Source: Flavobacterium sp. (lineage in GTDB: Bacteria; Bacteroidota; Bacteroidia; Flavobacteriales; Flavobacteriaceae). Taken from it: a DNA stretch of 64,000 nt. The notes beneath the pieces are model-generated. The model had not been told where the DNA came from. It made no database searches and worked only from the letters and a program-made list of their open reading frames with translations. A program made the position numbers and the translations under genes. Location: contig JAYVGC010000063.1 in the NCBI GenBank assembly GCA_043772535.1, positions 4,613-68,612 of the forward strand. The letters run 5' to 3'. This document shows, piece by piece, positions 14,374-49,954 of this stretch; position 1 is the stretch's first letter; the number at the start of each line of letters is the position of its first letter.

Positions 14374-14393
14374 TTTAAATATTATTTATTTTT

Positions 14394-27923: not shown

Positions 27924-28040
27924 TTTGGGCGTTACCTGCTTGCTTCGTCCCTAGCAATGACAGGTCGGACTTTACGCTACACTCTTTTTTAAAGAAAAAA
28001 ACTTTAAAAAAGGAGTTTCACTGCAATTCCTAACGCAAAC
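27924..28040. repeat. intergenic REP-like palindromic element (copy 1 of 2 in the window)
   Basis: 'tttgggcgttacc...' then hairpin 'cttttttaaag-aaaaaaa-ctttaaaaaag', then 'gagtttcactgcaattcctaacgcaa'. The second copy at 53892-53989 has the same ends and core hairpin. Confidence 0.7.
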
Positions 28041-28115
28041 TAGGTTTTAACTCAAATATATTTATAAGTATTAAATATCTTTATTTTATATTTGCGTCAA
28101 TAAAATTATATTGTA

Positions 28116-31331: not shown

Positions 31332-31664
31332 TGTGTTTTTTTAGACTGTAAAAGTAGTGAAAAAGAAATCTATTCTTTGACGTTTTAATTTACTTTTAAA
31401 TTTAAAATACGGATGACGTTTATAAAAAATTGGTGGAATTTTAAATATAGAAACACCCTTAACTGTAAAAATAGGTATTGATTTTGGCAGTAGCGTTCAC
31501 TAAAATAGTATTTTACGGTCACAATAGTACCTGTTCATTAAATAAATAATAGCTCTAGTTACAGTATAAAAACTTTTAGTTGCCTTGCCTCTTAATTTTG
31601 CATATTTTGTTAAAAATGACTATTATTGTACTATCATAAAAAACGAATTACAAAAAATAAAAAA

Positions 31665-32240
31665 ATGGCAATCAACTTACAAAAAGGACAAAAAATAGAT
31701 ATTGGTTTATCAAAAATAACGGTTGGATTGGGCTGGGATCCAAATGAAGGCACCGGTCGCGATTTTGATTTGGATGCATCGGCAATTATGATTAATGCTG
31801 AACGTAAATTGCTGGGTGAAAATTATTTTATTTTTTATAATAATTTAAATTCTCCAGATGGCGCACTAGAGCATACCGGAGACGACCCAACAGGCGGCAA
31901 CAGTGACGGAGCAGACGATGAAGCAATAAAGGTTGATTTAACTAAAATTGACGCAAACGTGCAAGAAATACTTTTTGTTGTTACAATTGAAGATTTTGAA
32001 GCAAGAAAACAAAATTTTGGTCAAGTTAGAAATTCATATATCAGAATTGTTGACGATGCTACTGGCGAGGAGATTGCTAAATATGAATTGGACGAAGATT
32101 TTTCGATAGAAACTGGCGTAGAATTCGGTAGATTATACAGAAGAAATGGGCAGTGGAAATTTGAAGCATCAGGTATCGGATACAAAGCAGATTTAAGTTT
32201 TTTTCTAGAGAAATATTATTCAGGAGAAATTATAAAATAG
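31665..32240 (+). CDS. terD: TerD-family stress protein (paralog 1)
   Basis: Has 'MAINLQKGQK', 'GLGWDPN', 'DFDLDASAIM', 'HTGDDPTGGNSDGADDE' (Ca-binding DGDDE-like loop), 'GRLYRRNGQWKFEA'. The start was trimmed to the ATG at 31665. Confidence 0.9.
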   Translation: MAINLQKGQKIDIGLSKITVGLGWDPNEGTGRDFDLDASAIMINAERKLLGENYFIFYNNLNSPDGALEHTGDDPTGGNSDGADDEAIKVDLTKIDANVQEILFVVTIEDFEARKQNFGQVRNSYIRIVDDATGEEIAKYELDEDFSIETGVEFGRLYRRNGQWKFEASGIGYKADLSFFLEKYYSGEIIK

Positions 32241-32278
32241 GCTTTTAAACGACGATAAATAATCCTTAAAAATATCCT

Positions 32279-32944
32279 TTGAAACTAGATTATTCAAAAC
32301 ACCAGCATTTTTCGTTTGATTTATGGTTAACATTAATAAAATCGAATCCAGAATTTAAGAGTAAGAGAAATCTATTATTTAAAGATTTTTTTGAAATAAA
32401 CTGTTCAATTGATAAAGTTACAGAAACGGTGCGGTATTATGACGTTTTATGCAATGCCATAAATGAAAAAACAGGACTTAATATTGATACCAATGAGATT
32501 TATTATTTAATTTTGTATGCACTAAATGTAAACATCAATGAAATAAGTACAGCACAATTAAGTTTATTTTACAAGGCAGCAGAACTATTGTTTTTAGAAT
32601 ATAAACCGCAACTACTATATCCAAATATTAAAATAGTATTTGAGGAAATAGCCGCACAGCAAAAAACAATCAATATTTTAAGTAATACTGCGTTTATAAA
32701 AGGTACTACTTTAAGAAAAATTATTTCATATTATGAATTAAGTGATTATTTTAAATTTCAAATTTATTCGGACGAAGTTGGATTTTCAAAACCAAATCCA
32801 AAAATATTTGAAGTAGTATTTGACCAAATAAATAATATAAAACCAATACAAAAAAAACAAGTATTGCACATTGGTGACAATATTGTAGCCGATTATAATG
32901 GTGCACTTCGATTTGGATTTGACGCACATTTATTAAAAATATAA
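32279..32944 (+). CDS. HAD-superfamily hydrolase (Ter-associated)
   Basis: Motif I 'FSFDLWLTL' (Asp+2 replaced by Trp), 'GFSKPNPKIFE' (motif III Lys) and 'HIGDNIVADYNGA' (motif IV). TTG start. Confidence 0.75.
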   Translation: MKLDYSKHQHFSFDLWLTLIKSNPEFKSKRNLLFKDFFEINCSIDKVTETVRYYDVLCNAINEKTGLNIDTNEIYYLILYALNVNINEISTAQLSLFYKAAELLFLEYKPQLLYPNIKIVFEEIAAQQKTINILSNTAFIKGTTLRKIISYYELSDYFKFQIYSDEVGFSKPNPKIFEVVFDQINNIKPIQKKQVLHIGDNIVADYNGALRFGFDAHLLKI

Positions 32945-32948
32945 AACC

Positions 32949-33755
32949 GTGAAAAGTAGTTACAGTTTACATAAAATAATTAATGAAACCGAGTACCCGT
33001 TTGATGCAAACGAATACAGTTGGTTTAAATTTGGCGACAAGCACTATGCTGAAAAATTTGCAATAGAATTGTTTAACGGATTTATAGAAAAATACAGCGA
33101 CTTACTTTTATCAAGCAATGATATTGTAGTGCTTCCAAGTCCTTATTTATCAATTCCTACAGCGTCAAATTTTTTGTGCTTCTATTTTAAAAAGTGTTTA
33201 AATAGCTTTCTTTTTAAAAATAATAAAAAGGCAAGTATCGAATCTAAAATTTATCGAAACCAAACGTATGTTACCGATTACGGAAATTTAAATTTTGATG
33301 AAAGAGTACAACTAATAGCGAATGACACCTACTATATTGATCGAAATTTTATTAATGATAAATTGTGTATTTTTGTTGATGACATTAAAATTACAGGCAG
33401 TCATGAGCATACCGTCAATAAAATATTAGATCAATACGATGTCAATGGTAATTTTATATTTGTTTATTTTGCCGAATTAAGCAACAAAGAGATTCATCCA
33501 AAAATAGAAAACCATTATAATTATTTTGCTATTGAAAATTTAGACAGTATTATTGAGGTGGTTAACAGAAATAAATTTCAATTTAATACAAGAATCATAA
33601 AATACATATTAAACCTTGATGAAAAGCAGTTTACAGTATTAATAAATGCCATTTCGATTGAAAAACGCAACGATCTATTTCATTTAGCAATTAGTAATAA
33701 CTATCATCAAATTATTGAATATCAGAGTAACATTGAATCAATAAAAATCGTTTAA
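32949..33755 (+). CDS. phosphoribosyltransferase-like protein (Ter-associated PRTase)
   Basis: PRPP-binding loop 'LCIFVDDIKITGSHEHTV'. GTG start 4 nt after the HAD gene. Confidence 0.7.
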   Translation: MKSSYSLHKIINETEYPFDANEYSWFKFGDKHYAEKFAIELFNGFIEKYSDLLLSSNDIVVLPSPYLSIPTASNFLCFYFKKCLNSFLFKNNKKASIESKIYRNQTYVTDYGNLNFDERVQLIANDTYYIDRNFINDKLCIFVDDIKITGSHEHTVNKILDQYDVNGNFIFVYFAELSNKEIHPKIENHYNYFAIENLDSIIEVVNRNKFQFNTRIIKYILNLDEKQFTVLINAISIEKRNDLFHLAISNNYHQIIEYQSNIESIKIV

Positions 33756-34027
33756 GTCAGCAAACAAAAAAATTGAATCTTCAAACTTTTAATCGCATAG
33801 AAAAATGACATATACAACGCAGGATATAAAAAACTTACAGTTAAAAATTTGGTTTAATAAATCGCCAATGGAAAGATTACACCAGTTTACGACTGATAAT
33901 GAAGCACTAATTAATTTTTGAAAAGAAGTTAAATCTTCAGATTAAATTTTAAAAGTTATTTCTAGTAAAAATACAATTGACACTTCAAAAAATACTAATA
34001 GTTCAAAAACTAAAAAAAATTAAAATT

Positions 34028-34582
34028 ATGGCAATCAACTTACAAAAAGGGCAAAGAGAAAATATAAATGCTCCAAAATTTACAATTGGATTAGGATGGG
34101 ACACAAATAGTAGTGCAACAGGTTCAGGCTTTGATTTAGACGCCTCAGTATTTGTACTAGGCGAAAACAAAAAATTAATTTCAGATGCTCATTTTATATT
34201 TTATAACAACCTTAAATCGCCCGATGATGCCGTTATTCATACCGGAGATAATTTAACAGGCGACGGCGATGGTGATGACGAGCAAATTAAAATTGACTTA
34301 ACAAAAATAAATCCTGCTGTAAAAGAGATTTGTGTAGTTGTAACAATTCACGACAGCGAAGCCCGAAAACAAAATTTTGGTCAAGTTCGCAATTCATTTA
34401 TCAGAATTGTTGATGATAGCAATACCACCGAAATGGTTAAATATGAATTAGAGGAAGATTTTTCGATAGAAACAGCAGTTGAATTTGGAAGAATATACAA
34501 CAAAGACGGACAATGGAAATTTGAAGCGATTGGCGTTGGCATGAAAGGTGGACTTCAGGATTATTTAAATAAATATAACTAA
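34028..34582 (+). CDS. terD: TerD-family stress protein (paralog 2)
   Basis: Has 'MAINLQKGQRENINAPKFTIGLGWD', 'GFDLDASVFVL', 'HTGDNLTGDGDGDDEQIKIDL'. The start was trimmed to the ATG at 34028. Confidence 0.9.
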   Translation: MAINLQKGQRENINAPKFTIGLGWDTNSSATGSGFDLDASVFVLGENKKLISDAHFIFYNNLKSPDDAVIHTGDNLTGDGDGDDEQIKIDLTKINPAVKEICVVVTIHDSEARKQNFGQVRNSFIRIVDDSNTTEMVKYELEEDFSIETAVEFGRIYNKDGQWKFEAIGVGMKGGLQDYLNKYN

Positions 34583-34586
34583 AACT

Positions 34587-35195
34587 ATGGCAATTAATTT
34601 AGAAAAAGGGCAACGAATTAATCTTGAAAAAGGCAATGGAACTACCCTTCAAAACATTTGTGTGGGCGTAAATTGGGGTGCAATTGAAAAAAAGGGGCTT
34701 TTTGGCACTAAAAAAGAGCCCGTAGATTTGGATGCAAGCTGCGCTATTTATGACGACAAGAAAAATCATATTGATTCGGTAAATTTTAAAAAACTACAAT
34801 CAAATGATCAAGCCATAAAACATAGTGGCGATGATTTAACTGGTGATTTAGACGGCGATGACGGGCTAGATAACGAAGTAATTACCCTAGATTTTTCGAA
34901 ATTATCTCCTGCAGCAAGCCATGTTGCTTTTTTTATAAATAGCTTTAGAGGTCAAGATTTTAAAGACATTCCGTTTGCATCGATACGCATATACGAAGGA
35001 ACTCCTACTAAAGTGAACCAAGAATATGCACGCTATGATATTGCAAATGACGCTTCTTTTGCAGGTAACGTTTCGATGGTACTTGGGGTTTTTTATAAAA
35101 GAAACGAACAATGGAAGTTCAACGCCATTGGTGTTGCCACTAAAGATAAAAAACTAGAAGAAACAGTGATCACAATTCAAACAAATCATTTATAA
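34587..35195 (+). CDS. diverged TerD-domain protein (paralog 3, longer type)
   Basis: Has 'MAINLEKGQRINLEK', 'VGVNWGAIEKKGLFG', 'VDLDASCAIYD', 'HSGDDLTGDLDGDDGLDNEVITLD'. Confidence 0.85.
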   Translation: MAINLEKGQRINLEKGNGTTLQNICVGVNWGAIEKKGLFGTKKEPVDLDASCAIYDDKKNHIDSVNFKKLQSNDQAIKHSGDDLTGDLDGDDGLDNEVITLDFSKLSPAASHVAFFINSFRGQDFKDIPFASIRIYEGTPTKVNQEYARYDIANDASFAGNVSMVLGVFYKRNEQWKFNAIGVATKDKKLEETVITIQTNHL

Positions 35196-35202
35196 AAAAA
35201 GT

Positions 35203-36291
35203 ATGACAGATAATCAATTAGTTACTCAAGAAAATGTAGCATTGATTGATAAAAATGGAAATGTAAATTTAACATCTATTTCAGCAAGTGAAGTAGCTAA
35301 TTACAAATCGATTTCTAATCAGTTAAATGAAAACGATGCGAATTCAATTTTAAATTACGGTGCAGAAATTCAAAATGCAATTGCCAAACAAAGCGATACT
35401 TTTTTGACCAACGTACGAACTTATAATTCAGGAGAAGTTGGAACTTTGATAAATGATTTATTAACAGAATTAAATTATGTTGATGTAGACCAATTGGATC
35501 AAGGTCCTTTTAAACGATTTCTTTCTAAAATTCCACTAGTTAATAAACTGGTTGTTGATGTAAAAAAATTATTTCAACAATATGATAAAATTACTGTAAA
35601 TATTGATAAAATTAGCAATAAAGTTAAAGCAGGAATGATCAATTCTGCAAAAGACAACAGCGCATTACAAACTATGTTTGACGGCAACGTAGGATTGATA
35701 AAAGAAATGGAACAACACATTATTGGTGGTCAAATTCGATTTAAAGAATTGAGCGAAGAACTTGCCGTAATGGATACCAATACCACCCAGTACCAGGACT
35801 ATCAAATATCTGACAAAAGAAACTACATTAACCGACTAGACAAACGTTTAGCCGATATGAAAATTGTTCGCTTCATTATGTTACAGTCGTTGGCACAAAT
35901 TCGGGTGGTGCAAAACAACAACACCTCTATTGCCGAAAAAGCACAATCGATATTAACCACTACAATGCCCGTTTGGAAAAACCAACTTACATTGGCGGTT
36001 GCCTTGCAACGACAAAAGCAAAATATTGAAATTCAACGTAAAGTAGCCGAAACGACCAATACTATTTTACAAAAAAATGCCGAGATGCTTAAACAAAACA
36101 GCATTGAAGTTGCCAAAGAAAACGAAAATACAATTGTATCGCTTGAAACACTTAAAATAACAACAAAATCATTAATCGATACTTTAACAGAAGTAAAACA
36201 AATTCATGATCAAGGAACAGAAACCAGAAGACAACTTGATGCAGGATTGCACAGTCTTGAAAGCGAATTAAAAAAAGGAGTTATCAGTTAA
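35203..36291 (+). CDS. telA: TelA-family toxic anion resistance protein
   Basis: Has 'ILNYGAEIQNAIAKQSDTFLTNVRTYNSGEVGTLINDLLTEL' and long coiled-coil regions. 362 aa. Confidence 0.85.
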   Translation: MTDNQLVTQENVALIDKNGNVNLTSISASEVANYKSISNQLNENDANSILNYGAEIQNAIAKQSDTFLTNVRTYNSGEVGTLINDLLTELNYVDVDQLDQGPFKRFLSKIPLVNKLVVDVKKLFQQYDKITVNIDKISNKVKAGMINSAKDNSALQTMFDGNVGLIKEMEQHIIGGQIRFKELSEELAVMDTNTTQYQDYQISDKRNYINRLDKRLADMKIVRFIMLQSLAQIRVVQNNNTSIAEKAQSILTTTMPVWKNQLTLAVALQRQKQNIEIQRKVAETTNTILQKNAEMLKQNSIEVAKENENTIVSLETLKITTKSLIDTLTEVKQIHDQGTETRRQLDAGLHSLESELKKGVIS

Positions 36292-36314
36292 ACTGACCAA
36301 AGCAAGACCATTAC

Positions 36315-37280
36315 ATGACAGATGAAGAAGAACGATATGTTCAAATAATAAAGGAAAGTAATAAGAAGCTTGTGATTTTAGAATTGTTATCCAATTTTTT
36401 TAATCATAAACATCTTATTGGAACTTTAATAAAAACAAAAATTATTCATACTCTTTTTCAAAATAACAGCACTTTAGACATTAATAAGCTTGAATTATTT
36501 CATATTCAATTTACCAATAGTCTGCTTGATTTGTTTAAAAAACTTAAAAAATCAAAAGAGCAAAATTATCTTTTAATTTCTGATGAGATTTATATCAATA
36601 AGGATATTATTTCAAAGTTAAAAATTGAAATTGATGAAATTAATTTTTTTGACCAGATGCGAGTTCATTCACAAAAAATGTCTAAAAAAATAGAACAACT
36701 TTATAATATGTTGGTTACCGATAACCTATCACCTTTTAGTTGGGACGATGTGGTAAACCATTCCAAACAAATTCAATCAGAGTACTATCGAGAAATAAAT
36801 AGTAACCAATACGAGCAATTAACGCAATTAAATAAAAGTGTATATCAAAATACATTTGCTATATTTGAAAAAAAACTTTTAGGACGCTTAAATATTTTTA
36901 AGTTTAAAATTAAATTTTTGTGCGGATTAGTTTGCAATAATAATTGTATCGAAGTGTATGAGTTTCGGGATTCGAATGATAAATTTATATTTGTTGACAA
37001 TGATAAATCGTTCTATTTTTTGGAGCATGAAAGTGCAAAAGGAATTGATTTTTCAAAAAATTGTTCTACTAAAAATCAAATTGTAATGCAACTCGAATCG
37101 AAAAATGCAGACCTAAAAGTAGCACTCGGTCAGATAAAAACCAGCTTGCCTGCAACGGTAGAAGAGGTATTAAAAAATTATTTGGATAAAATTTCGTCAG
37201 TAGATTTTTTAGAAGATTTGCAAAATGTTGATGAACAAACAAATATTTTAAAAACAATGTTAAATATTAAAATTAACTAA
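36315..37280 (+). CDS. hypothetical protein (321 aa) embedded in the Ter cluster
   Basis: Same-strand ORF between telA and a TerD gene, ending 7 nt before the next start. Helical and K/N/E-rich. No motif recognised. Confidence 0.55.
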   Translation: MTDEEERYVQIIKESNKKLVILELLSNFFNHKHLIGTLIKTKIIHTLFQNNSTLDINKLELFHIQFTNSLLDLFKKLKKSKEQNYLLISDEIYINKDIISKLKIEIDEINFFDQMRVHSQKMSKKIEQLYNMLVTDNLSPFSWDDVVNHSKQIQSEYYREINSNQYEQLTQLNKSVYQNTFAIFEKKLLGRLNIFKFKIKFLCGLVCNNNCIEVYEFRDSNDKFIFVDNDKSFYFLEHESAKGIDFSKNCSTKNQIVMQLESKNADLKVALGQIKTSLPATVEEVLKNYLDKISSVDFLEDLQNVDEQTNILKTMLNIKIN

Positions 37281-37287
37281 ACATAAA

Positions 37288-37839
37288 ATGGCAATTAATT
37301 TAGAAAAAGGACAACGACAAAGCATTGATGCTCCAAAATTTACTGTGGGATTAGGCTGGGATAGCAATGCGAGCAGCACAGGAGAAGGATTTGACTTAGA
37401 TGCATCTGTTTTTTTAATTGGCACAAATGGTAAAATTCCAAACGACAATCATTTTGTGTATTACAATAATTTAAAATCGCCGGACGGTGCTGTACTTCAT
37501 ACTGGAGATAACCTGACTGGAGATGGTGATGGCGATGATGAAAAAATACAAATTGATTTGTCAAAAATAGATCCACAAGTAAATGAAATTTCGTTTGTAG
37601 TAACCATTCATCATGCCGATACAAGAAGGCAAAATTTTGGTCAAATTAGAAACTCGTTTATTAGAATTTTAGACCAATTAAATGTAGAATTAGTAAAATA
37701 CGAACTCGACGAAGATTTTTCGATAGAAACAGCAGTCGAATTTGGACGACTTTACAAAAGAAACAGCGAGTGGAAATTTGAAGCAGTTGGCATAGGCATG
37801 AAAGGTGGATTACAAGATTATTTAACCAAATATAATTAA
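37288..37839 (+). CDS. terD: TerD-family stress protein (paralog 4)
   Basis: Has 'MAINLEKGQRQSIDAPKFTVGLGWD', 'GFDLDASVFLI', 'HTGDNLTGDGDGDDEKIQIDL'. Very similar to paralog 2. Confidence 0.9.
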   Translation: MAINLEKGQRQSIDAPKFTVGLGWDSNASSTGEGFDLDASVFLIGTNGKIPNDNHFVYYNNLKSPDGAVLHTGDNLTGDGDGDDEKIQIDLSKIDPQVNEISFVVTIHHADTRRQNFGQIRNSFIRILDQLNVELVKYELDEDFSIETAVEFGRLYKRNSEWKFEAVGIGMKGGLQDYLTKYN

Positions 37840-37844
37840 AAAAT

Positions 37845-38504
37845 ATGGCCATAAATTTAACAAAAGGACAAAAAATTGATTTACGAAAATCAAGCGGCGA
37901 GACATTAACAAATTTTTGTGTAGGCGTAAACTGGGGAGCAATAGAAACAAAAGCATTCTTTGGATTATCAAAAAATATAAAAGACGTTGATTTGGATTTA
38001 AGTTGCATCCTAATTGACGACCAAAACAAGCTTTGCGATCATTTATATTCACCTTTATATCGAGTTGAAGTGTTGCAACAATTTGGTTTGCCAAAAGGTA
38101 AATTATTAACTTCAGATGGTGCTTTAAAACATACAGGCGATGATCTTGCTGGCGATAAAGGAGGCGACGATGGCTTGGATAATGAAATTATAACCGTAGA
38201 TTTGTCTAAGGTAGATGCAAAAGTTACCCAAATATTTTTCTTTTTGAACAATGCTGGAAACGAAGATTTTTCACAAATTCCGTATGCAAAAATCAGAATG
38301 TACGAAGGCACACCAACACGAGTAGTTTCAGAATTTGCGTCGTATAATGTTGCTGCTGATGCGCAATATATAAACAAACGATCCATTATTATGGGTAAAT
38401 TATACAAACGAAATAACGAATGGAAATTTAGCGCTATTGGTGATCCTACCGAAGATACTTTTTTAGGACAAACTATTCATAAAATTATTCAATCGTACTT
38501 GTAA
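37845..38504 (+). CDS. diverged TerD-domain protein (paralog 5, longer type)
   Basis: Has 'MAINLTKGQKIDLRK', 'VGVNWGAIETKAFFG', 'HTGDDLAGDKGGDDGLDNEIITVD'. Resembles paralog 3. Confidence 0.85.
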   Translation: MAINLTKGQKIDLRKSSGETLTNFCVGVNWGAIETKAFFGLSKNIKDVDLDLSCILIDDQNKLCDHLYSPLYRVEVLQQFGLPKGKLLTSDGALKHTGDDLAGDKGGDDGLDNEIITVDLSKVDAKVTQIFFFLNNAGNEDFSQIPYAKIRMYEGTPTRVVSEFASYNVAADAQYINKRSIIMGKLYKRNNEWKFSAIGDPTEDTFLGQTIHKIIQSYL

Positions 38505-38917
38505 TGGAAATTAAAAATATAAACGGACTTAGCGTTTCTGAAATAAAACAATTGGTGCAACAAGGAGGTAAATTTGTTCTGTTTCCCTACACCATTTCAT
38601 TTGTACTAATGACGCTCAAAAGAAATTCAAGTATCTATTTTATTCGACCAAACGAAGGGACTTTTAAATATTCGTATGGGTATGTTTTATTAAATTTACT
38701 TGTGGGCTGGTGGGGGATTCCGTGGGGTCCTATTTATACAATTGGTGCATTATACAACCATATCATTGGTGGTAAAGAGTATACGCAATTGGTTTTAAGC
38801 GAATTAATACAAAATGACCCACAAGCTAATACCAGTACCTATGGCATTAATGATATGATTACTGCAACTCAAGAAAACAGTAGCATCAAACCCGAAACGT
38901 ATACTATTCCATCCTAA
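38504..38917 (+). CDS. small putative membrane protein
   Basis: TAATG overlap with the upstream TerD gene. Two hydrophobic segments: 'FVLFPYTISFVLMTL' and 'YVLLNLLVGWWGIPWGPIYTIGALY'. Confidence 0.55.
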   Translation: MEIKNINGLSVSEIKQLVQQGGKFVLFPYTISFVLMTLKRNSSIYFIRPNEGTFKYSYGYVLLNLLVGWWGIPWGPIYTIGALYNHIIGGKEYTQLVLSELIQNDPQANTSTYGINDMITATQENSSIKPETYTIPS

Positions 38918-38932
38918 ATAAAAAATATTAAA

Positions 38933-39571
38933 ATGAGAAGACTACCTGTATATTTGCTATTAGACACGTCAGGATCAATGTCAGGCGAGCCAATTGAAGC
39001 TGTAAAAAATGGAGTTCAAATAATGATTAGTTCCTTACGCCAAAATCCACAAGCTATTGAAACAGCCTTTTTAAGTGTAATAACTTTTGATAGTACAGCA
39101 CAACAAATTATTCCGTTGACTGATTTAGCCTCTTTTCAAATGGTAGATATTAAAGCAACCGGAGTTACGGCTCTTGGCGAAGCTTTAAAATTAGTTGCTC
39201 ATAAAATTGATACCGAAGTTCAAAAAACAACTCCCGAACAAAAAGGAGATTGGAAACCTTTGGTTTTTATTATGACTGATGGTATTCCTACCGATGATTG
39301 GCAAAGTGGCTTAAATGAATTTAAAAAATCTAAAGTTGCCTTTACAGTTGCTTGTGCAGCAGGCAGTGGCGCTGATGCTAAAATTTTAAAACAAATTACC
39401 GATAATGTAGTGAGTTTAGATACTGCTGATAGTGCTAGTATTGGTAAATTCTTTCAATGGGTAACCGCTTCAATCGGCGTAAGTTCGACAAAAGTAGAAG
39501 ACTCTGGAAAAGAGGTTACGGGTTTAAAAGAACTCCCTCCTCCTCCATCGGAATTAAATATCGTAGTTTAA
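38933..39571 (+). CDS. TerY-like von Willebrand factor A (vWA) domain protein, paralog 1
   Basis: Has 'MRRLPVYLLLDTSGSMSGEPI' (MIDAS DxSxS), 'IMTDGIPTDDW', and a C-terminal 'ELPPPPSELNIVV'. Confidence 0.88.
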   Translation: MRRLPVYLLLDTSGSMSGEPIEAVKNGVQIMISSLRQNPQAIETAFLSVITFDSTAQQIIPLTDLASFQMVDIKATGVTALGEALKLVAHKIDTEVQKTTPEQKGDWKPLVFIMTDGIPTDDWQSGLNEFKKSKVAFTVACAAGSGADAKILKQITDNVVSLDTADSASIGKFFQWVTASIGVSSTKVEDSGKEVTGLKELPPPPSELNIVV

Positions 39572-39582
39572 AATAAAATAGT

Positions 39583-39741
39583 ATGGCAAAGTTTGGATTT
39601 TCATTTTCGTTAAATAGACTTTTAGGAATTACGGGTGCTAAACAAAGTTTTGCCCGAAAAACAGGAGTTCCAACTACTAAAGGTGGCGTTGAAAGAAAAT
39701 TGGGTAATTTCATAATTAAATCGTTATTCGGAAAAAAGTAA
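39583..39741 (+). CDS. small ORF (52 aa) not in the supplied track, between two vWA genes
   Basis: ATG at 39583, TAA at 39739-39741, and the next gene starts at 39743. The peptide is MAKFGFSFSLNRLLGITGAKQSFARKTGVPTTKGGVERKLGNFIIKSLFGKK. It is basic, and it fills the gap exactly. Confidence 0.45.
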   Translation: MAKFGFSFSLNRLLGITGAKQSFARKTGVPTTKGGVERKLGNFIIKSLFGKK

Positions 39742-39742
39742 C

Positions 39743-40378
39743 ATGAGACGACTACCAGTATATTTTTTATTAGATACATCGGGCTCTATGTATGGCGAAC
39801 CCATTCAAGCGTTAAATAATGCTTTGAGCGGTATGATTAACACTTTACGTTCCGATGCACAAGCACTAGATTCGCTCTGGATAAGCATCATAACCTTTGA
39901 TAGGGAAGTTAAAGAAATTGTTCCGTTAACAGAATTAGTTAGTTTTCAACTTCCAGAAATTACGTGTCCACAAAGCGGTCCTACAAATACTGGTGCTGGT
40001 TTAGAATTTGTTATTCAAAAAGTAAAAACGAATGTCATAAAAAGTTCATCAACCCAAAAAGGCGATTGGAAACCATTATTATTTGTATTTACCGACGGAA
40101 AACCATCTGACATACAGCTGTATAGACAAAAAATATCTGAAATTAAAAATTTAAATTTTGGAACTGTTGTTGGCTGTGCTGCCGGCCACATGGCAAATGA
40201 TGAAATACTTAAAGAACTAACAGATAATGTGGTTCATTTAGATTCTGCAGATAGTGCAACCCTTAAACAATTTTTTAAATGGGTTTCTGAAACAATTGAA
40301 CAGGGCAATAAAAGCCAAGGAACGGGCGAAAATACTCCATTACCGCCACCCCCAAGCGAAATAACTTTAATAATATGA
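39743..40378 (+). CDS. TerY-like vWA domain protein, paralog 2
   Basis: Has 'MRRLPVYFLLDTSGSMYGEPI', 'VFTDGKPSD', and a C-terminal 'PLPPPPSEITLII'. Confidence 0.88.
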   Translation: MRRLPVYFLLDTSGSMYGEPIQALNNALSGMINTLRSDAQALDSLWISIITFDREVKEIVPLTELVSFQLPEITCPQSGPTNTGAGLEFVIQKVKTNVIKSSSTQKGDWKPLLFVFTDGKPSDIQLYRQKISEIKNLNFGTVVGCAAGHMANDEILKELTDNVVHLDSADSATLKQFFKWVSETIEQGNKSQGTGENTPLPPPPSEITLII

Positions 40379-40629
40379 CAAAATTAATTCCAATTTTTAT
40401 AAATATCTTAATTGTAGGTTTGTTTTTATATTCAAAACTACTACCCTACAAAGACAAATTAAACCCGCAATACAAAAAGATTTTCGATTTTTTCAACAGT
40501 ATCTTTTCTCCAATCTTTAATTTTTTAAAAAATAGTATCAAACCTTTTCAGGTTGGTTTAGGATTGTCTGTTGATATGTCACAAATTGTGCTTTTAATTA
40601 TCTTTTTAATGCTTTTAAATTTTTTCTAG
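40375..40629 (+). CDS. small membrane protein, YggT-like
   Basis: ATGA overlap with the upstream vWA gene. 84 aa with two TM segments. 'FQVGLGLSVDMSQIVLLIIFLML' resembles the YggT repeat (by eye). Confidence 0.5.
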   Translation: MTKLIPIFINILIVGLFLYSKLLPYKDKLNPQYKKIFDFFNSIFSPIFNFLKNSIKPFQVGLGLSVDMSQIVLLIIFLMLLNFF

Positions 40630-40630
40630 T

Positions 40631-41683
40631 ATGCGAAGATTACCGATATATTTTTTAATAGACATTTCAGAATCAATGGTTGGCGAACCCATTCAACAAG
40701 TTGAAGAAGGTTTGGCAACAATTATTCAAACATTAAAAACAGATCCACACGCACTCGAAACTGTTTTTGTTTCTATTATTGTCTTTGCTGGTCAACCTAA
40801 AACTTTAGTGCCATTACAAGAAATAGTTAGTTTCTATCCTCCAAAATTCCCTATTGGTAGCGGAACCTCATTAAGCAAAGGTTTAGGGCATTTGATGCAC
40901 GAATTAAGAACTAATATTGTCAAAACCACTTATGAAATAAAAGGCGATTGGAAACCAATTGTATTTTTATTTACCGACGGTGTGCCAACAGATGACAGTA
41001 AAATAGCTATTAACGAGTGGAAGCAAAATTGGCAAAGTACCGCAAATTTAATTGCCGTTTCATTTGGTAATGATACAGATACAAAACTTTTAGGAGAATT
41101 AACAGATACTGTTTTAGAATTTAAAAACACCAATGTTCAATCCTATAAAGAATTTTTTAAATGGGTTACCGATTCCATAAAAACAAGCAGTATTAGCGTT
41201 GAAAGTAACGCAAACGGTTTTGAATTAGCAAAATTAGATGGGGAAACACTATCAAAAATTGATTTGACAAAAGCAACACCTAACCGCCAATTTGTAGATG
41301 ATAATTTTGTAGTGCTGAATGGTAAATGCCAAAATACCAAAAGACCTTATTTAATGAAATACCGTAAAATAATTGCACCGTCAATTTATGCAGGTATTGA
41401 ATTAGGTACAAAAAGCTACCGCTTAGTTGGAGCGTATCAAGTTGATACTTCTTACTTTGAATTGGCAGACAGTGCCACTTTTAGCAATAAAGTAAATACA
41501 GACGAATTAATTGGTGCTCCAACTTGTACGTGTTGTGGCAATCAAATTGCGTTTGCTGTTTGCAGTTGCGGTAAAATACATTGTATTGGTGATGAAGTAA
41601 TAAGCACTTGCCCATGGTGCGGCAATCAAGGAACTTATGGCAATGGTGCTGGAGGTTTTGACGTAAATAGAACACAAGGATAA
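40631..41683 (+). CDS. TerY-like vWA domain protein, paralog 3, with a C-terminal Cys-rich (zinc-ribbon-like) extension
   Basis: Has 'MRRLPIYFLIDISESMVGEPI', 'LFTDGVPTDD', and a C-terminal 'CTCCGNQIAFAVCSCGKIHCIGDEVISTCPWCGNQ'. Confidence 0.88.
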   Translation: MRRLPIYFLIDISESMVGEPIQQVEEGLATIIQTLKTDPHALETVFVSIIVFAGQPKTLVPLQEIVSFYPPKFPIGSGTSLSKGLGHLMHELRTNIVKTTYEIKGDWKPIVFLFTDGVPTDDSKIAINEWKQNWQSTANLIAVSFGNDTDTKLLGELTDTVLEFKNTNVQSYKEFFKWVTDSIKTSSISVESNANGFELAKLDGETLSKIDLTKATPNRQFVDDNFVVLNGKCQNTKRPYLMKYRKIIAPSIYAGIELGTKSYRLVGAYQVDTSYFELADSATFSNKVNTDELIGAPTCTCCGNQIAFAVCSCGKIHCIGDEVISTCPWCGNQGTYGNGAGGFDVNRTQG

Positions 41684-41686
41684 TTT

Positions 41687-43096
41687 ATGGAAGATGCAAA
41701 AAAATATATTCAAGCATTTTTATCACAAAACAAAATAGAAATTCCTTCAAAAAAACGGTCTCTTTTTGATGAATTTATTGCCAATGAAACAAATATAAAT
41801 TCCGTAAAAATAATTCAAGAAAATCAAAAAATGATTATGGCAAATTGGACCTTAAAAACTCGAATTGACGATATTATTTTACAAGCAGTATCATTACCAA
41901 ACGGCACTGTAAATAAAAAATATGAATCAAAAATTGATTTTATTAAATTGGGTTGGAATGATGTTATTTATTCAGAAATTAAGGGTTTAGAAGAAACAGG
42001 ACTTGAATTTGATAACGAAAAAGAATTGCTTTTTGGAAATCCGTTAATAAGTGGCGATTTAAAAATAAGATTGTTATTTCGAATTGAAGGAGAAGCAAAA
42101 GATTCTAAATTAAATGAAAAAACAATAACACTTATTATCAATCCAGATCCTAAATCATTATGGAAAGACATTGAAAGTGATAAAAATGATCCTTACTGGA
42201 AAGATGACAATGTTGCTATTTCTAATAAATTTTTAGATAAAAATATAGTAATAGCGTCAAAACGTGGAAGAAGTCACGCCAATGTGGGTTCTTTTAGAGA
42301 TGATGATTTTGCCTTCAAGAATATCAACGAAACTGGTTGGAGTGTGTTAGCCGTTTCAGATGGTGCAGGTTCGGCAAGTTTATCAAGACAAGGTTCTAAA
42401 ATGTCTTGTGATTTAGTACTATCCTATTTTGAAGAAAACTTTACTGACGAATATTTAAAAGAATTTGATGAAACATTATTGAATCATCACAATAAAACGG
42501 ATGAAGATTCTTCAAAAAAAATAAGTCACTTTGTTTATGATACTCTTTCAAAAGCAGCTTGGTTTGTTCATAAGGAATTAGAGAAATTTGCCATAAAATC
42601 AGAAAAACCGTTACGAGATTTTCACGCCACTTTGATTTTTGCTTTAGTCAAAAAATACGATTTTGGATATGCAATACTAACTTTTGGTGTTGGCGATTGC
42701 CCAATTGGATTATTAAATAAAGATGTAACCGAAATTAAATTAATGAATTGGTTGGATGTTGGAGATTTTGGTGGTGGAACTCGTTTTATTACAATGCCAG
42801 AAATATTCCAAAGTGATAAATTTTCAACACGATTTGGTTTTACATTGGTTGCTGATTTCTCTTATTTGATGTTGATGACAGATGGAATCTATGATCCAAA
42901 ATTTGTTGTAGAAGCTAATTTAGAAAAAATAGAAAAATGGAAAGAATTCATAGAAGATTTACAAGGGAAAAATGGTGATAGTTGTAAAGTTAATTTTACA
43001 AAAGAAAATGTAGCAATTGCAAATCAACTTTCTACTTGGATGGACTTTTGGAATCCGGGTAATCACGACGACCGAACTCTTGCAATAATCTATTAG
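41687..43096 (+). CDS. PP2C-family Ser/Thr protein phosphatase with an N-terminal extension (TerY-P triad phosphatase)
   Basis: Has 'SVLAVSDGAGSASLSRQGS', 'LMLMTDGIYD', 'NHDDRTLAII'. 469 aa. Confidence 0.82.
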   Translation: MEDAKKYIQAFLSQNKIEIPSKKRSLFDEFIANETNINSVKIIQENQKMIMANWTLKTRIDDIILQAVSLPNGTVNKKYESKIDFIKLGWNDVIYSEIKGLEETGLEFDNEKELLFGNPLISGDLKIRLLFRIEGEAKDSKLNEKTITLIINPDPKSLWKDIESDKNDPYWKDDNVAISNKFLDKNIVIASKRGRSHANVGSFRDDDFAFKNINETGWSVLAVSDGAGSASLSRQGSKMSCDLVLSYFEENFTDEYLKEFDETLLNHHNKTDEDSSKKISHFVYDTLSKAAWFVHKELEKFAIKSEKPLRDFHATLIFALVKKYDFGYAILTFGVGDCPIGLLNKDVTEIKLMNWLDVGDFGGGTRFITMPEIFQSDKFSTRFGFTLVADFSYLMLMTDGIYDPKFVVEANLEKIEKWKEFIEDLQGKNGDSCKVNFTKENVAIANQLSTWMDFWNPGNHDDRTLAIIY

Positions 43097-43099
43097 ACG

Positions 43100-44611
43100 A
43101 TGAAAACAATAACTGTAAAATCGATTAATAATACCTCAAAAACGTATCAGTTTGTAGATAATGGCGAACCTATGCGTGGCGGTGTAAAAGATGTATTTTT
43201 TAGTCCTGATAAAAAATATGTTGTAGCCATTTTTAGAGATAAATTAGACTTTAATCAAAAAGAAAGACTGCAAAAAATAACCAATTATTATTTACCCCAA
43301 ATTCAAACTAAAGAAGCAGGAGATTATTATTTAAACGAAGTGTTTCGTTGGCCAACAGATGTTATTGAGTATAATGGATTGACGGGAATAATTGTACCCA
43401 TCTATAATTCTAAATTTTTCTTTAAAAAAGGATATGAAACCAGTGATTTGATTCAAGGTAAAGAAAAAAATGGCAAATGGTTTGCAGGACCTAAATTCAG
43501 AAATCCTCAATTTCCCCTAAGGATTGCTAAATCAGAATTAGGTGATTGGTTGAGTTATTTTCAAGTTTGCGTTAATTTGACTCGTGGTGTCAAAAAAATG
43601 CACGCAATGGGATTGTCTCATTCTGATTTATCGTACAATAATGTTTTGATCGATCCTGTTGAAAAATCGGCATGCATGATTGATTTAGACGGATTAGTTG
43701 TACCTGGTTTGTTTCAAGCTGAAGTGATAGGTACCGCTGAATTTATAGCCCCAGAAGTACTTTCTACCAAACATTTAAGCAAAACAGACCCGAATAGAAA
43801 ACTACCAAACAGATTAACCGATTTACATGCGTTACCAGTACTTATTTACATGTTTCTTTTACATCGACATCCTTTAAAAGGAGGTAAAGTTCACGATTTA
43901 GATACTGAAAAAGATGATTTATTGTCAATGGGTGCGAAAGCAATGTTTATTGAACATCCAAAAGATGCAACCAATAGACCTAAATTAAACCAGGTTTCTA
44001 AATGGGACTTGCCTTGGGCTGATATTGCAAAACTTCCGTATTCTATTACTGGTCCGTATTTAAAAACATTGTTTGACAAAGTTTTTATCGACGGTTTGCA
44101 CAATCCAATGCAAAGACCCACTGCCGAAGAATGGGAAATAGGATTGCTAAAAACAACCGATTTAATGCAGAAATGCCACAATGTTTATTGTGAACAAAAA
44201 TGGTATGTTTTTGACAATACAAATACGCCTAAATGCCCATTTTGCGGTACAGCTCATAAAGGAACTTTACCAATTTTAGATTTATATTACCAATTTAAAG
44301 AATCGGTATGGAAACCTGAAAATCATAGACTGATGGTTTATGACAATCAATATTTGTTTCAATGGCATGTTAATAGGAATGTGAACAGAAACGAAAAAAC
44401 AACAGCCGACCAGAAAATTCCAGTTGGTTATTTCACATTTCATAATAATAAATGGGTTTTCGTAAATCAAAAATTAGCATCGATGAAAGATGTAACCGAA
44501 GATAAAGAAATTCCGATTGGTTCAATGGTAGCATTAACGGACGGTAAAAAACTTCTATTGTCAAAAGAAGATGGAGGACGAGTAGTAGTAATAACAATGG
44601 CAAATAAATAA
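43100..44611 (+). CDS. Ser/Thr protein kinase-like protein with a zinc ribbon and a C-terminal domain (TerY-P triad kinase)
   Basis: Catalytic loop 'GLSHSDLSYNNVLID', DFG-equivalent 'MIDLDGL', 'FIAPEV', and a zinc ribbon 'CHNVYCEQKWYVFDNTNTPKCPFCG'. Confidence 0.82.
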   Translation: MKTITVKSINNTSKTYQFVDNGEPMRGGVKDVFFSPDKKYVVAIFRDKLDFNQKERLQKITNYYLPQIQTKEAGDYYLNEVFRWPTDVIEYNGLTGIIVPIYNSKFFFKKGYETSDLIQGKEKNGKWFAGPKFRNPQFPLRIAKSELGDWLSYFQVCVNLTRGVKKMHAMGLSHSDLSYNNVLIDPVEKSACMIDLDGLVVPGLFQAEVIGTAEFIAPEVLSTKHLSKTDPNRKLPNRLTDLHALPVLIYMFLLHRHPLKGGKVHDLDTEKDDLLSMGAKAMFIEHPKDATNRPKLNQVSKWDLPWADIAKLPYSITGPYLKTLFDKVFIDGLHNPMQRPTAEEWEIGLLKTTDLMQKCHNVYCEQKWYVFDNTNTPKCPFCGTAHKGTLPILDLYYQFKESVWKPENHRLMVYDNQYLFQWHVNRNVNRNEKTTADQKIPVGYFTFHNNKWVFVNQKLASMKDVTEDKEIPIGSMVALTDGKKLLLSKEDGGRVVVITMANK

Positions 44612-44639
44612 AATAAAAATTAACTTTTAAATTAAACAA

Positions 44640-45641
44640 ATGAACAATCATCCAATTTTTTCAGAACATCCTTGGCTAATAGTCACTTTTGCAGTAGCCG
44701 TATTTATAATGTTAATTCTAGATTTAGGAGTTTTTAATAAAAAAAGCCATTCTGTAACCAACAAAGAAGCCGTTATTTGGTCTTGTGTTTGGATATCTTT
44801 AGCAATGATATTTAGTGGACTGGTTTATAATTTTGCTGGATCAGCTAAATTTTATGAATTTCAATCAGCCTATTGGATCGAAAAAGCACTTTCCGTCGAT
44901 AATTTATTTGTATTTATTTTAGTTTTTAAATTTTTTGATGTCGCCAACGAAAACAAACATAAAGTATTATTTTGGGGTATTGTAGGCGCCCTAGTTTTAC
45001 GTGCCTTATTTATTTTTTCTGGTGCCTATTTAATCGAATTAACCTACTTAAACAAACTACTTGGTCTTGCTGGCATTCAAGGTTTTAAATACGACATCAA
45101 CCTAATCATGACTGCTTTTGGTTTATTTTTAGTTTATGCAGGTATTAAATCATGGTCCGCAGGTGACGAAGACGATGACCAGGATTATAACGATACGAGA
45201 GGCGCAAAATTAATCCGTAAATTTTTTAACGTAAGTGATAAATACGTAGGCGATAAATTTTTTACAATCGAAAACGGTAAAAAATTAGCTACACCCTTGC
45301 TAGTTGTTGTAGCAGTAATTGAATTTACCGATTTGCTTTTTGCAGTAGATTCGATACCCGCAATTTTTGCCATATCAAATGATCCATTTATACTGTACAC
45401 CTCTAATATTTTTGCAATACTTGGTTTACGTGCCTTATTTTTTCTTTTGGATAATTTCATCCATTTATTTAGTAAACTAACGTATGGCTTGGCATTTATT
45501 CTTTCATTTATAGGTATTAAAATGATCATTTCGCCTTTCTACCATATTGATTCTGTCTACTCGCTTATTGTAATAGGTGGTATTTTAGTACTATCCGTGC
45601 TTGCATCTGTATTGTTTCCAACCAAAGAAGAGCAAGAATAG
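44640..45641 (+). CDS. terC: TerC-family integral membrane protein
   Basis: Has 'LSVDNLFVFILVF', 'ALVLRALFI', 'FAVDSIPAIFAIS', 'TSNIFAILGLRALFFLL'. Confidence 0.9.
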   Translation: MNNHPIFSEHPWLIVTFAVAVFIMLILDLGVFNKKSHSVTNKEAVIWSCVWISLAMIFSGLVYNFAGSAKFYEFQSAYWIEKALSVDNLFVFILVFKFFDVANENKHKVLFWGIVGALVLRALFIFSGAYLIELTYLNKLLGLAGIQGFKYDINLIMTAFGLFLVYAGIKSWSAGDEDDDQDYNDTRGAKLIRKFFNVSDKYVGDKFFTIENGKKLATPLLVVVAVIEFTDLLFAVDSIPAIFAISNDPFILYTSNIFAILGLRALFFLLDNFIHLFSKLTYGLAFILSFIGIKMIISPFYHIDSVYSLIVIGGILVLSVLASVLFPTKEEQE

Positions 45642-45664: not shown

Positions 45665-45708
45665 ACAACAGGCAACACTATCAAAAAAATGATAGTGTTG
45701 CCTGTTGT
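45665..45708 (+). terminator. perfect 19-bp stem / 6-nt loop hairpin downstream of terC (candidate terminator)
   Basis: 'acaacaggcaacactatca aaaaaa tgatagtgttgcctgttgt', verified as an exact inverted repeat. No strong T-tract follows, so terminator function is uncertain. Confidence 0.5.
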
Positions 45709-46012: not shown

Positions 46013-46753
46013 GTGTTGTTTTTCACTTCAAAAAAGCCAATTCTTGCCGATTTAATTCCCAACAATTATGTTGATATTCATTCGCATTTATTACCTGCAA
46101 TTGATGATGGTTCGCCAACAACGTCCACAACACTGCACCTAATTTTGGAGTTGCAAAAAATAGGATTTGCTGAATTTATTACAACGCCTCACATTATGGA
46201 ATTGATTTATCCCAATACCGATAATACAATTTTAAAGTTGTTAGATCAAACAAAAATTGAAATTGAAAAAGCAAATATTGCTACTTATTTTTCGGCTGCA
46301 GCAGAGTACATGATGGACGCAAATTTTTCAAATGCTTTACACCAAAAAAAAATACTACCGTTAAAAGAAAATTACGTTTTGGTTGAAATGTCGTATGTTA
46401 ATGCACCCTTAAATTTATACGATATTATTTTTGATATGCAGCTGCAAGGGTACCAGCCCGTTTTAGCACATCCTGAGCGGTACGCTTTTTTACATTCAAA
46501 ACTTGATGAATATAAAAAACTAAAAAATGCAGGCTGTTTATTTCAAATGAATTTGCTTTCAACCGTAGGATACTATGGCAAAGGTGTGAGTAAAGTAGCC
46601 GATTATTTACTACTAAATGCAATGATCGATTTTGTGGGTTCAGATGTACACCATCACAGGCATACGGAATCATTTTACAAAAAAATTGTTTTAAAAAATC
46701 ACGATAAGCTGCCACAACTTATTCAAAATAATCTCTTTTTTTCGTCTAAATAA
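46013..46753 (+). CDS. PHP-family protein-tyrosine phosphatase (CpsB/CapC/YwqE type)
   Basis: Has 'VDIHSHLLPAIDDG', 'TPHI', 'LAHPERY', 'GSDVHH'. GTG start. It is convergent with wzc. Confidence 0.85.
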   Translation: MLFFTSKKPILADLIPNNYVDIHSHLLPAIDDGSPTTSTTLHLILELQKIGFAEFITTPHIMELIYPNTDNTILKLLDQTKIEIEKANIATYFSAAAEYMMDANFSNALHQKKILPLKENYVLVEMSYVNAPLNLYDIIFDMQLQGYQPVLAHPERYAFLHSKLDEYKKLKNAGCLFQMNLLSTVGYYGKGVSKVADYLLLNAMIDFVGSDVHHHRHTESFYKKIVLKNHDKLPQLIQNNLFFSSK

Positions 46754-46755
46754 AT

Positions 46756-49113: not shown

Positions 49114-49116
49114 GAA

Positions 49117-49875: not shown

Positions 49876-49954
49876 TAATAAAATCAGATTTTTTACAAAT
49901 ATAGAATAAACTATTTAAATCGCTTTGCACCAGTACTATCTAAATTAGCTTTTG

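Follow-up and report, generated by a model that had tools for sequence, protein, structure and literature searches.

A chromosomal Ter gene cluster of Flavobacterium: a conserved six-gene core joined to an apparently exchangeable TerY-P cassette

In a stretch of 64,000 nucleotides (nt) from Flavobacterium sp. (contig JAYVGC010000063.1 of assembly GCA_043772535.1; the whole stretch is called the window here), positions 31665-45641 hold 18 consecutive open reading frames (ORFs) on the plus strand that together cover 13,977 nt and encode proteins of the Ter network. As judged from its genes, this cluster belongs to the Ter stress-response system, in a chromosomal version from Bacteroidota, and is built from modules that have been described before. 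A first-pass annotation of the DNA had presented it as one supercluster. Our comparison with related loci supports a different view: The cluster is real and represents the commonest form in Flavobacterium, but it is a composite of parts that are gained and lost separately, i. e. a small core to which, among others, a TerY-P block has been added. The genes and the other features of the cluster are as follows, with lengths in amino acids (aa) and scores for Pfam models.

31621-31630, plus strand: promoter-like box TATTATTGTA, nearly matching the -7 motif of Bacteroidetes (TAnnTTTG), 35 nt 5' of the first ATG
31665-32240, plus strand: TerD1, canonical TerD protein, 191 aa (TerD, 233.9 bits)
32279-32944, plus strand: hydrolase of the HAD superfamily, 221 aa, TTG start (Hydrolase, 43.5 bits; HAD_2, 38.1 bits)
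32949-33755, plus strand: PRTase_3, ComF-like phosphoribosyltransferase, 268 aa, GTG start (PF15610, 288.4 bits, full length)
33756-34027, no strand assigned: non-coding insertion of 272 nt, lineage-specific
34028-34582, plus strand: TerD2, canonical TerD protein, 184 aa (TerD, 243.6 bits)
34587-35195, plus strand: TerD3, long divergent TerD protein, TerZ-like, 202 aa (TerD, 116.5 bits)
35203-36291, plus strand: TelA, 362 aa (TelA, 300.4 bits)
36315-37280, plus strand: ORF7, coiled-coil protein, 321 aa (database label PF26677)
37288-37839, plus strand: TerD4, canonical TerD protein, 183 aa (TerD, 239.7 bits)
37845-38504, plus strand: TerD5, long divergent TerD protein, 219 aa (TerD, 106.4 bits)
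38504-38917, plus strand: ORF10, first gene of the cassette, 137 aa, two hydrophobic segments as judged by eye; its start overlaps the TerD5 stop (ATGA)
38933-39571, plus strand: vWA1, TerY-like, 212 aa (VWA, 56.1 bits), MIDAS motif DTSGS..T..D intact
39583-39741, plus strand: ORF12, basic peptide between vWA1 and vWA2, 52 aa
39743-40378, plus strand: vWA2, TerY-like, 211 aa (VWA, 57.2 bits), MIDAS motif DTSGS intact
40375-40629, plus strand: ORF14, 84 aa, two predicted transmembrane segments (hydrophobic residues 1-25 and 58-84, above the hydropathy threshold)
40631-41683, plus strand: vWA and TerY_C metal-binding protein, 350 aa (TerY_C, 167.3 bits; VWA, 49.2 bits), MIDAS motif DISES
41687-43096, plus strand: PP2C-family Ser/Thr phosphatase, 469 aa (PP2C_2, 95.9 bits, residues 193-424)
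43100-44611, plus strand: Ser/Thr protein kinase with a C-terminal zinc ribbon, 503 aa (Pkinase, 35.2 bits)
44640-45641, plus strand: TerC/Alx-type integral membrane protein, 333 aa (TerC, 161 bits)
45665-45708, plus strand: terminal hairpin after terC, perfect 19-bp stem with a 6-nt A loop

The coordinates and the small gaps of these ORFs, the largest being the 272 nt before the second TerD gene, agree with the first-pass annotation, and all of its domain calls (five TerD, HAD, PRTase, TelA, three vWA, PP2C, kinase, TerC) are correct by Pfam; for 14 of the 18 genes, the Pfam or NCBIfam scores far exceed the cut-offs. In gene order, the intergenic distances are 38, 4, 272, 4, 7, 23, 7, 5, -1, 15, 11, 1, -4, 1, 3, 3 and 28 nt, and no more than 422 of the 13,977 nt are non-coding (about 97% coding). 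The start/stop overlaps that had been noticed are two ATGA sequences at 38504 and 40375. For the first and the fourth gene, the ORF listing had placed the start at an upstream TTG; we regard ATG 31665 and ATG 34028 as the correct starts because all five TerD paralogs then begin with MAINL. A box TAT(C/T)ATTGTA about 35 nt 5' of the first TerD start is found not only in the window but also in the related loci L007, L009, L015, L018, L021, L023, L031, L034, L037 and L061, and it is kept at the same distance although the upstream neighbours vary among the Flavobacterium loci. This box is likely the -7 element of the cluster promoter. A perfect TAATTTTG is also present upstream of the first TerD gene, at 31593-31600. 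A scan for sigma-70-type promoters, which are the wrong promoter type for Bacteroidota, yielded 79 matches as compared to 73 expected from shuffles, i. e. no enrichment. At the other end, the hairpin is indeed perfect over 19 bp, with a free energy of -32.2 kcal/mol (z = -9.0; none of 200 shuffles folds as well), and it likely forms the 3' end of the transcript; it is missing from the list of the terminator scan because no T tract follows it. The proposal of a single apparent operon thus holds insofar as the layout of the 18 genes is consistent with co-transcription, and the cluster is probably read as one long transcript in this strain. The location on one strand, the high coding density, the overlapping stops and starts, and the single conserved promoter-like box upstream with one strong hairpin downstream would also be expected if the 18 genes encoded one indivisible machine, the modules of which are obligatorily co-dependent and inherited as a unit.

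The distribution of the genes among relatives speaks to this point. We mapped all 18 proteins onto 80 loci with 10-kb flanks, one genome per species, that had been chosen by ORF7 homology from at least 140 relatives; the presence of ORF7 in this set is therefore by construction, and the counts of architectures rest on the 66 loci that are fully covered. A core of HAD, PRTase_3, TerD, long TerD, TelA and ORF7 is present in essentially all complete loci, from Flavobacterium, Pedobacter, Mucilaginibacter, Chitinophaga and Edaphocola; the only gaps among the 66 loci are a missing PRTase match in L075 and a missing HAD match in L080. Around this core, we found 19 architectures. The layout of the window, apart from ORF12, occurs in 21 of the 66 loci, and this exact order speaks for an indivisible machine. 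In Flavobacterium, the core is followed by a second TerD pair and terC, with the stretch from ORF10 to the kinase gene as a cassette in between. This cassette is absent from six Flavobacterium loci, in which the TerD pair leads straight to TerC, it is reduced to one stand-alone vWA gene in 17 loci, and it is inverted, and thus on the other strand, in four Chitinophaga loci. Several loci of Mucilaginibacter and Chitinophaga end after ORF7, and terC is not in the loci of Chitinophaga and some Mucilaginibacter that still have the core. The first TerD gene is optional as well, since TerD1 was not found in many relatives, and a Hymenobacter plasmid (see below) has the HAD-PRTase pair on the divergent strand. 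An indivisible 18-gene machine is unlikely in the light of these loci. The independent variation of modules among relatives, which the first-pass annotation had named as an observation that would count against its supercluster, is thus partly seen, and we regard the TerY-P block, from its distribution, as an exchangeable add-on cassette.

The junction between PRTase_3 and TerD2 has a history of its own. In 71 of 75 relatives, the two genes are separated by 2-5 nt or overlap; an enlargement by more than about 200 nt is found only in the window (272 nt) and in its closest relative, L001 (1286 nt). Rather than an ancestral spacer between operons, the gap is a derived and recent insertion, and in the ancestral state the HAD-PRTase pair was translationally coupled to the TerD/TelA genes. 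The 272-nt insert has no similarity to the insertion of L001, to any compared locus or to the rest of the window, and there is no TAnnTTTG on its plus strand. A small gene and a regulatory RNA were both considered: The 38-aa ORF in the gap (33805-33921) is not conserved, and no Rfam family matches. In this lineage, the junction is possibly a hotspot for insertions. As a separate observation, the equivalent junction of L001 (6409-7696) contains ORFs of 81 and 117 aa that probably form a HicA/HicB toxin-antitoxin pair, as judged by eye from the translations.

The five TerD paralogs fall into two types. The canonical proteins TerD1, TerD2 and TerD4 share 61-73% identical residues (72.7% for TerD4 and TerD2), and the identity between the long proteins TerD3 and TerD5 is 52%, while either of them reaches 32-42% with the canonical proteins (36-40% for TerD3). 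They are arranged as a lone canonical copy in front, followed by two pairs of a canonical and a long protein, TerD2-TerD3 and TerD4-TerD5, that flank TelA and ORF7. The motifs of the Ca2+ site, DLD(A/L)S and H(T/S)GD(D/N)..G..DG.D(D/N)E, are retained in all five proteins (DLDAS and HTGDD..G..DG.DDE in TerD1), and TerD2 matches the solved Ca2+-binding TerD of Klebsiella (2KXT/2KXV) with 196 bits. For TelA, we found no solved homolog. A gap of 4 nt separates the HAD gene from the PRTase_3 gene, and the two are always paired, even away from Ter clusters; judged by gene neighbourhoods, this pair is a unit in its own right. Both enzymes have conserved active-site motifs in 76 homologs: The HAD protein keeps motifs I-IV (FDLWLT, LSNT, SKPN, GDNxxxD), and PRTase_3 keeps the phosphoribosyl pyrophosphate (PRPP) loop DDIKITGSH. 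Two residues past the nucleophile Asp, the HAD protein has an invariant Trp (FDLWLT), a feature shared by its nearest solved relative, PDB 2om6 (FDVWNTL). In addition, a HAD-PRTase_3 pair with 29% and 26% identity to that of the window lies beside repA on plasmid pRL10 of Rhizobium johnstonii (L083, 6355-7828), with no detectable Ter genes within 7 kb.

ORF7 follows TelA in all 80 loci and is conserved across three Bacteroidota classes. The label PF26677 is precomputed on all 240 listed homologs, including P0001, which is 100% identical; the local Pfam copy used for our scans is without this model, and ORF7 therefore had no match there. According to its AlphaFold2 (AF2) model (pLDDT 84), long coiled-coil helices surround a small beta-sheet domain formed by residues 176-235. 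There is no structural match with a Foldseek E value below 0.001 in PDB or BFVD, and no sequence-profile match to PDB. The possibility that ORF7 is a divergent TelA was rejected (hhalign probability 0.6%). ORF7 has a small family: Among 1.84 billion proteins, it forms only 129 clusters at the 50% identity level, and no copies were found in phage or plasmid records. We conclude from these comparisons that ORF7 is a conserved core component that belongs to a fold-orphan family. A few rare members (P0388, P0390, P0407 and P0478) are longer, at 493-694 aa, owing to additional N-terminal stretches of 170-370 aa; these are not informative fusions as they have no Pfam domain. Their composition looks very AT-rich.

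The cassette combines three vWA proteins, a phosphatase and a kinase with small genes. All three vWA proteins retain the MIDAS motif DxSxS..T..D, and vWA2 is about 90% identical across Flavobacterium. The N-terminal part of the PP2C protein (about 190 aa) has no family match in the high-E Pfam scan. The kinase adopts a kinase fold (Foldseek probability 1.00 to many kinases), and its HSD..N, DLDG and APE motifs as well as the CxxxxC..CxxC zinc ribbon are conserved in 55 homologs. In all 55 of them, the VAIK lysine is replaced by Phe (VVAIF), and Lys30 of the glycine-rich loop (GGVKDV) is invariant; such a WNK-like arrangement could still allow activity. About 110 residues past the ribbon are beta-rich in the AF2 model (pLDDT 43-89); the identity of this C-terminal domain was sought with AF2 and Foldseek, but the mean pLDDT of 67 is too weak, and the kinase core dominates the Foldseek matches. 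Kinase sequences from Flavobacterium, Pedobacter, Emticicia and Arcicella share 76-93% of their residues. Between Flavobacterium and records of other classes (P0252, P0254, P0310, P0353), the identity reaches 87% for Pedobacter and 77-80% for Emticicia and Arcicella; this is far above the expectation for vertical descent, and the patchy occurrence of the cassette together with these identities suggests its lateral movement.

The small genes of the cassette differ in their distribution. ORF10 (37 loci at E < 1e-28) and ORF14 (about 36 loci) are conserved only where the cassette is present, and hhalign gave no indication that they are related to each other. ORF10 and ORF12 have no family match in Pfam, NCBIfam, PADLOC or the high-E Pfam scan, and the YGGT match of ORF14 is below the threshold (20.9 bits versus a cut-off of 27). 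ORF12 is rare: Among the 80 loci, only L038 (96% identity) and L067 (76%) have it. A near-identical record, WP_298395238.1 (50 of 52 residues), is called a hypothetical protein at NCBI, and the exact sequence of the window occurs on 16 contigs. A relation of ORF12 to DUF4236 peptides was dismissed (BLASTP E = 0.42, no Pfam match). In a protein collection clustered at 90% identity, ORF12 is filed with proteins that are mostly vWA proteins of 211 aa, i. e. the product of the neighbouring gene, including the representative; this looks like a clustering artefact since the sequences are unrelated. L018 (F. johnsoniae CI04) has no ORF12 in the corresponding slot, but it has an extra ORF of 161 aa with a hydrophobic N-terminus (14074-14559) between vWA2 and the ORF14 homolog, where the window has nothing. 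The rarity of ORF12 and this extra ORF indicate that the slots between the vWA genes hold variable small genes. A comparable pattern, with inserts between duplicated TerY-like vWA genes, is known from the CoCoNuT study (PMC11090510). The four unassigned ORFs of the cluster had been thought to be lineage-specific components. This is only true for ORF12, and narrowly so; ORF7 belongs to the core across three classes, and the cassette regularly includes ORF10 and ORF14.

TerC is the last gene in most Flavobacterium loci. The protein has multiple hydrophobic segments and matches NCBIfam TIGR03718 (Alx) with 345.7 bits at a cut-off of 246.4. The Rfam scan detected neither a yybP-ykoY/Mn riboswitch nor any other element before terC, where the gap is 28 nt.

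Much of what is assembled here is familiar. Anantharaman, Iyer and Aravind reportedly described the Ter modules, their association and most of the families in 2012. The modules and their association are established knowledge of comparative genomics; moreover, Pfam has families, PRTase_3 and TerY_C, for precisely these proteins, and the layout occurs in many sequenced Flavobacterium species. In all, dozens of related species share the cluster. A tblastn search with the TerY_C protein against plasmids returned 2,320 records, mostly IncHI2-type enterobacterial plasmids, and we used the ter locus of Salmonella p33836-1 (L081; IncHI2, R478-type) for comparison. In one arm, this locus encodes an ATP-grasp protein, a PRTase, a hypothetical protein, StiP, HpcH, DUF4236, TerW, a vWA protein, a TerD-family protein (TerX), a vWA protein, TerY-C, PP2C and a kinase, and in the other arm terZ, a terA-like gene, terB, terC, terD and terE. 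The order vWA, vWA, TerY-C, PP2C, kinase is the same as in the window, at 64.6% identity for vWA1, 44.7% over the full length for TerY-C, 30% for PP2C and 50.6% over 492 aa, including the C-terminal part, for the kinase; the link of the cluster to the Ter network and the TerY-P triad made in the first-pass annotation is therefore sound, with collinearity at 30-65% identity. The two TerD-family genes of the plasmid at the terD/terE position resemble TerD2 and TerD4 with about 50% identity (50-52% for TerD2), TerD3 finds its best plasmid match in TerZ (35%), and the TerC proteins share 34%. Both loci have a biosynthetic arm with a PRTase, and the slot of ORF12 in the window corresponds to that of terX on the plasmid.

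The two loci also differ. The plasmid locus is split over two divergent strands whereas all genes of the window lie on one strand; the former is plasmid-borne, the latter chromosomal with no mobile genes nearby. No tblastn match in the IncHI2 locus was obtained for TelA, ORF7, HAD, PRTase_3, ORF10, ORF12 and ORF14 of the window, and the lack of a match between PRTase_3 and the plasmid PRTase means that these are distant at best. Conversely, the plasmid has TerB, a 385-aa TerD-family gene at the terA position, TerW, TerX, ATP-grasp, StiP, an HpcH lyase and DUF4236, and the window has none of them; the scan of the 18 ORFs gave no match to ATP-grasp, an HpcH-type lyase, StiP or TerW, and the claim that every major module is present does not stand. 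Within the same phylum, a plasmid of Hymenobacter monticola (NZ_CP094537.1; L082) carries a HAD-PRTase_3 pair (28% and 36% identity), three TerD genes, two vWA genes, PP2C and a kinase (53%). In this locus, the HAD-PRTase pair is divergent from the rest, TelA, ORF7 and TerY_C are missing, and the locus ends in a DUF475 membrane protein rather than TerC, near a tyrosine recombinase.

According to PMC11090510, the TerY-P triad in the sense of Anantharaman, Iyer and Aravind (2012) has a classical kinase that ends in a zinc ribbon. The window matches this definition with a MIDAS vWA protein, PP2C and a zinc-ribbon Ser/Thr kinase that are adjacent and in that order. It differs from the triad, which has one vWA protein, in that there are three paralogs, the slots between which are occupied by small hydrophobic or basic ORFs, and in that the cassette sits between TerD and TerC genes, not beside restriction or CoCoNuT systems.

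The surroundings of the cluster are those of an ordinary chromosomal region. Upstream, there are genes for FtsK, a peroxiredoxin, a serine dehydratase and an ABC exporter. Immediately downstream (46013-53864) lies a capsule/exopolysaccharide locus with genes for a CpsB/CapC-type phosphatase, a Wzc-like tyrosine kinase (GNVR and AAA_31), a Wza-like exporter, a Polysacc_synt_2 dehydratase, a DegT aminotransferase and a PglD-like acetyltransferase. Among the neighbours in the window, we saw neither an integrase nor a transposase nor another defence gene. The Rfam gathering scan of the window detected two Flavo-1 RNAs and one tRNA, and no other match. The Flavo-1 RNAs (RF01705) are at 27959-28045 and 53906-53988, both on the minus strand (59.7 and 56 bits); one is located 5' of the serine dehydratase gene, the other within the capsule/exopolysaccharide locus. 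Together with best matches that all come from Flavobacterium, these two RNAs assign the sequence to this genus.

One could also regard the cluster as a dedicated anti-phage defence, in which TerY-P senses an infection and TerD, TelA and TerC are the effector of abortive infection or exclusion. The TerY-P system of Gao et al. 2020, composed of vWA, phosphatase and kinase, reportedly protects from T7-like phages (summarised in PMC7699616) and has the same three enzyme classes as the window, plasmid ter genes inhibit phages (PMC12054061), and the patchiness of the cassette among close relatives as well as the 87% kinase identity to the Pedobacter record hint at horizontal transfer. However, the validated Gao kinases end in an OB fold (PMC11090510), whereas the kinase of the window has the zinc ribbon followed by a domain of low confidence in the AF2 model. 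Moreover, 26 loci share one chromosomal context and 10 another (that of the window matches none), the neighbours in the window are housekeeping and capsule genes, and the conservation is very high for a defence system, with TerD and vWA proteins 80-95% identical across species and the kinase in the same range. This chromosomal stability within clades and so high a conservation of the proteins speak for a housekeeping-like role in stress and against a typical fast-evolving defence island. PADLOC gave no match for vWA and PP2C at E <= 10 and weak generic matches for the kinase, but the classical IncHI2 triad used as a positive control fails in the same way, and the search is uninformative as a test for anti-phage TerY-P. 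The link to the system of Gao et al. 2020 that had been drawn could thus not be confirmed, and we consider a role primarily in phage defence improbable.

How might the parts work together? The gene content, the intact motifs, the modular conservation and the IncHI2 collinearity are observed. The Ter model in four parts that Iyer et al. 2021 (PMC7824862) restated assigns a nucleoside- or nucleotide-like signal to PRTase/HAD, the sensing of ligand or metal to TerD, a change in membrane transport to TerC and a sub-membrane structure to TelA/vWA. All components of this model are found in the cluster, conserved and with intact motifs. We adopt the model and extend it by the TerY-P phosphorylation switch (PMC11090510) and by the transport of metals known for TerC and Alx proteins (PMC12096827 and PMC10197570). 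We propose, and think it reasonably probable though far from certain, that the cluster comprises three separable modules that form a membrane-associated, Ca2+/metal-dependent system for stress response and phage exclusion: (i) In the first module, HAD and PRTase_3 would make a ribosylated-base small molecule, nucleoside- or nucleotide-like, the pair of canonical and long TerD would bind Ca2+ and possibly also this molecule, and TelA with ORF7 would be a scaffold beneath the inner membrane. (ii) The second TerD pair would work with the Alx-type TerC, which would move Mn2+ or Ca2+ across the membrane. (iii) In the third, optional module, the three MIDAS vWA proteins, PP2C and the zinc-ribbon kinase would form a metal-dependent phosphorylation switch that tunes the complex, and ORF10 and ORF14 may tether the cassette to the membrane. 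By analogy with plasmid ter, the output would be that phages, toxins of the colicin type and toxic oxyanions do less damage or enter less; on plasmids of this kind, the terZABCDE genes confer resistance to tellurite, phages and colicins (Whelan 1995, as summarised in PMC12054061). We infer here the metabolite, the protein complex, the phosphorylation targets and the phenotype.

Several points weigh against this proposal. TerB, a part of the classical terZABCDE, has no Pfam match among the 18 ORFs, and there are two biosynthetic enzymes in the window as compared to six or more in the plasmid locus. In the HAD protein, the acid/base Asp that usually stands two residues past the nucleophile is missing, the kinase, without the canonical VAIK lysine, might have weak activity or be atypical, and ORF7 has no detectable homolog of known function in the PDB and BFVD searches. 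As the pRL10 pair has no Ter genes within 7 kb, the product of HAD and PRTase_3 need not be specific for Ter. In this strain, transcription could be divided by the 272-nt insertion. Finally, the literature search found no experimental work on any Bacteroidota Ter cluster, and the phenotype is therefore extrapolated from Enterobacteria.

A locus primarily for divalent-metal (Mn2+/Ca2+) homeostasis and the metalation of secreted proteins, in which TerC does the work, TerD and vWA buffer or regulate, and resistance to tellurite and phages is a side effect, would agree with the strong Alx subfamily match, with the Ca2+ binding of TerD and the metal sites of the vWA MIDAS and TerY_C, and with the Mn2+ export or exoenzyme metalation attributed to TerC-family proteins in PMC12096827 and PMC10197570, but it is very unlikely given that no Mn riboswitch or other Rfam element precedes terC, that TerC is lost from loci in which the core stays, and that the PRTase/HAD pair, TelA and ORF7 are left unexplained.

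The proposal of three modules can be extended in a bolder, and rather doubtful, form: The six-gene core might be a self-contained signalling device that makes a nucleotide-like second messenger upon an insult by phages or to the envelope; the TerD pair would read this messenger together with Ca2+, TelA and ORF7 would be a new membrane-remodelling effector, and TerY-P would be an exchangeable regulator with slots that capture small membrane proteins.

The Ter system is widespread and linked to resistance to phages, colicins and tellurite as well as to the fitness of virulence plasmids, and it is mechanistically unsolved. The earlier statement that such clusters are hardly studied is borne out, as our literature search found no paper on this cluster in Flavobacterium. 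New in this work are the minimal invariant core that includes the fold-orphan protein ORF7, the cassette nature of TerY-P with its variable small genes, and the derived character of the 272-nt gap. With this compact version on a single strand, the layout of which is also present in the genetically tractable F. johnsoniae (L018), the modules can be separated one by one, and the natural variants are ready "knock-outs" of the TerY-P cassette. The minimal core of HAD, PRTase_3, two TerD proteins, TelA and the PF26677 protein offers a cleaner biochemical entry to the Ter system than the 20-gene plasmid locus.

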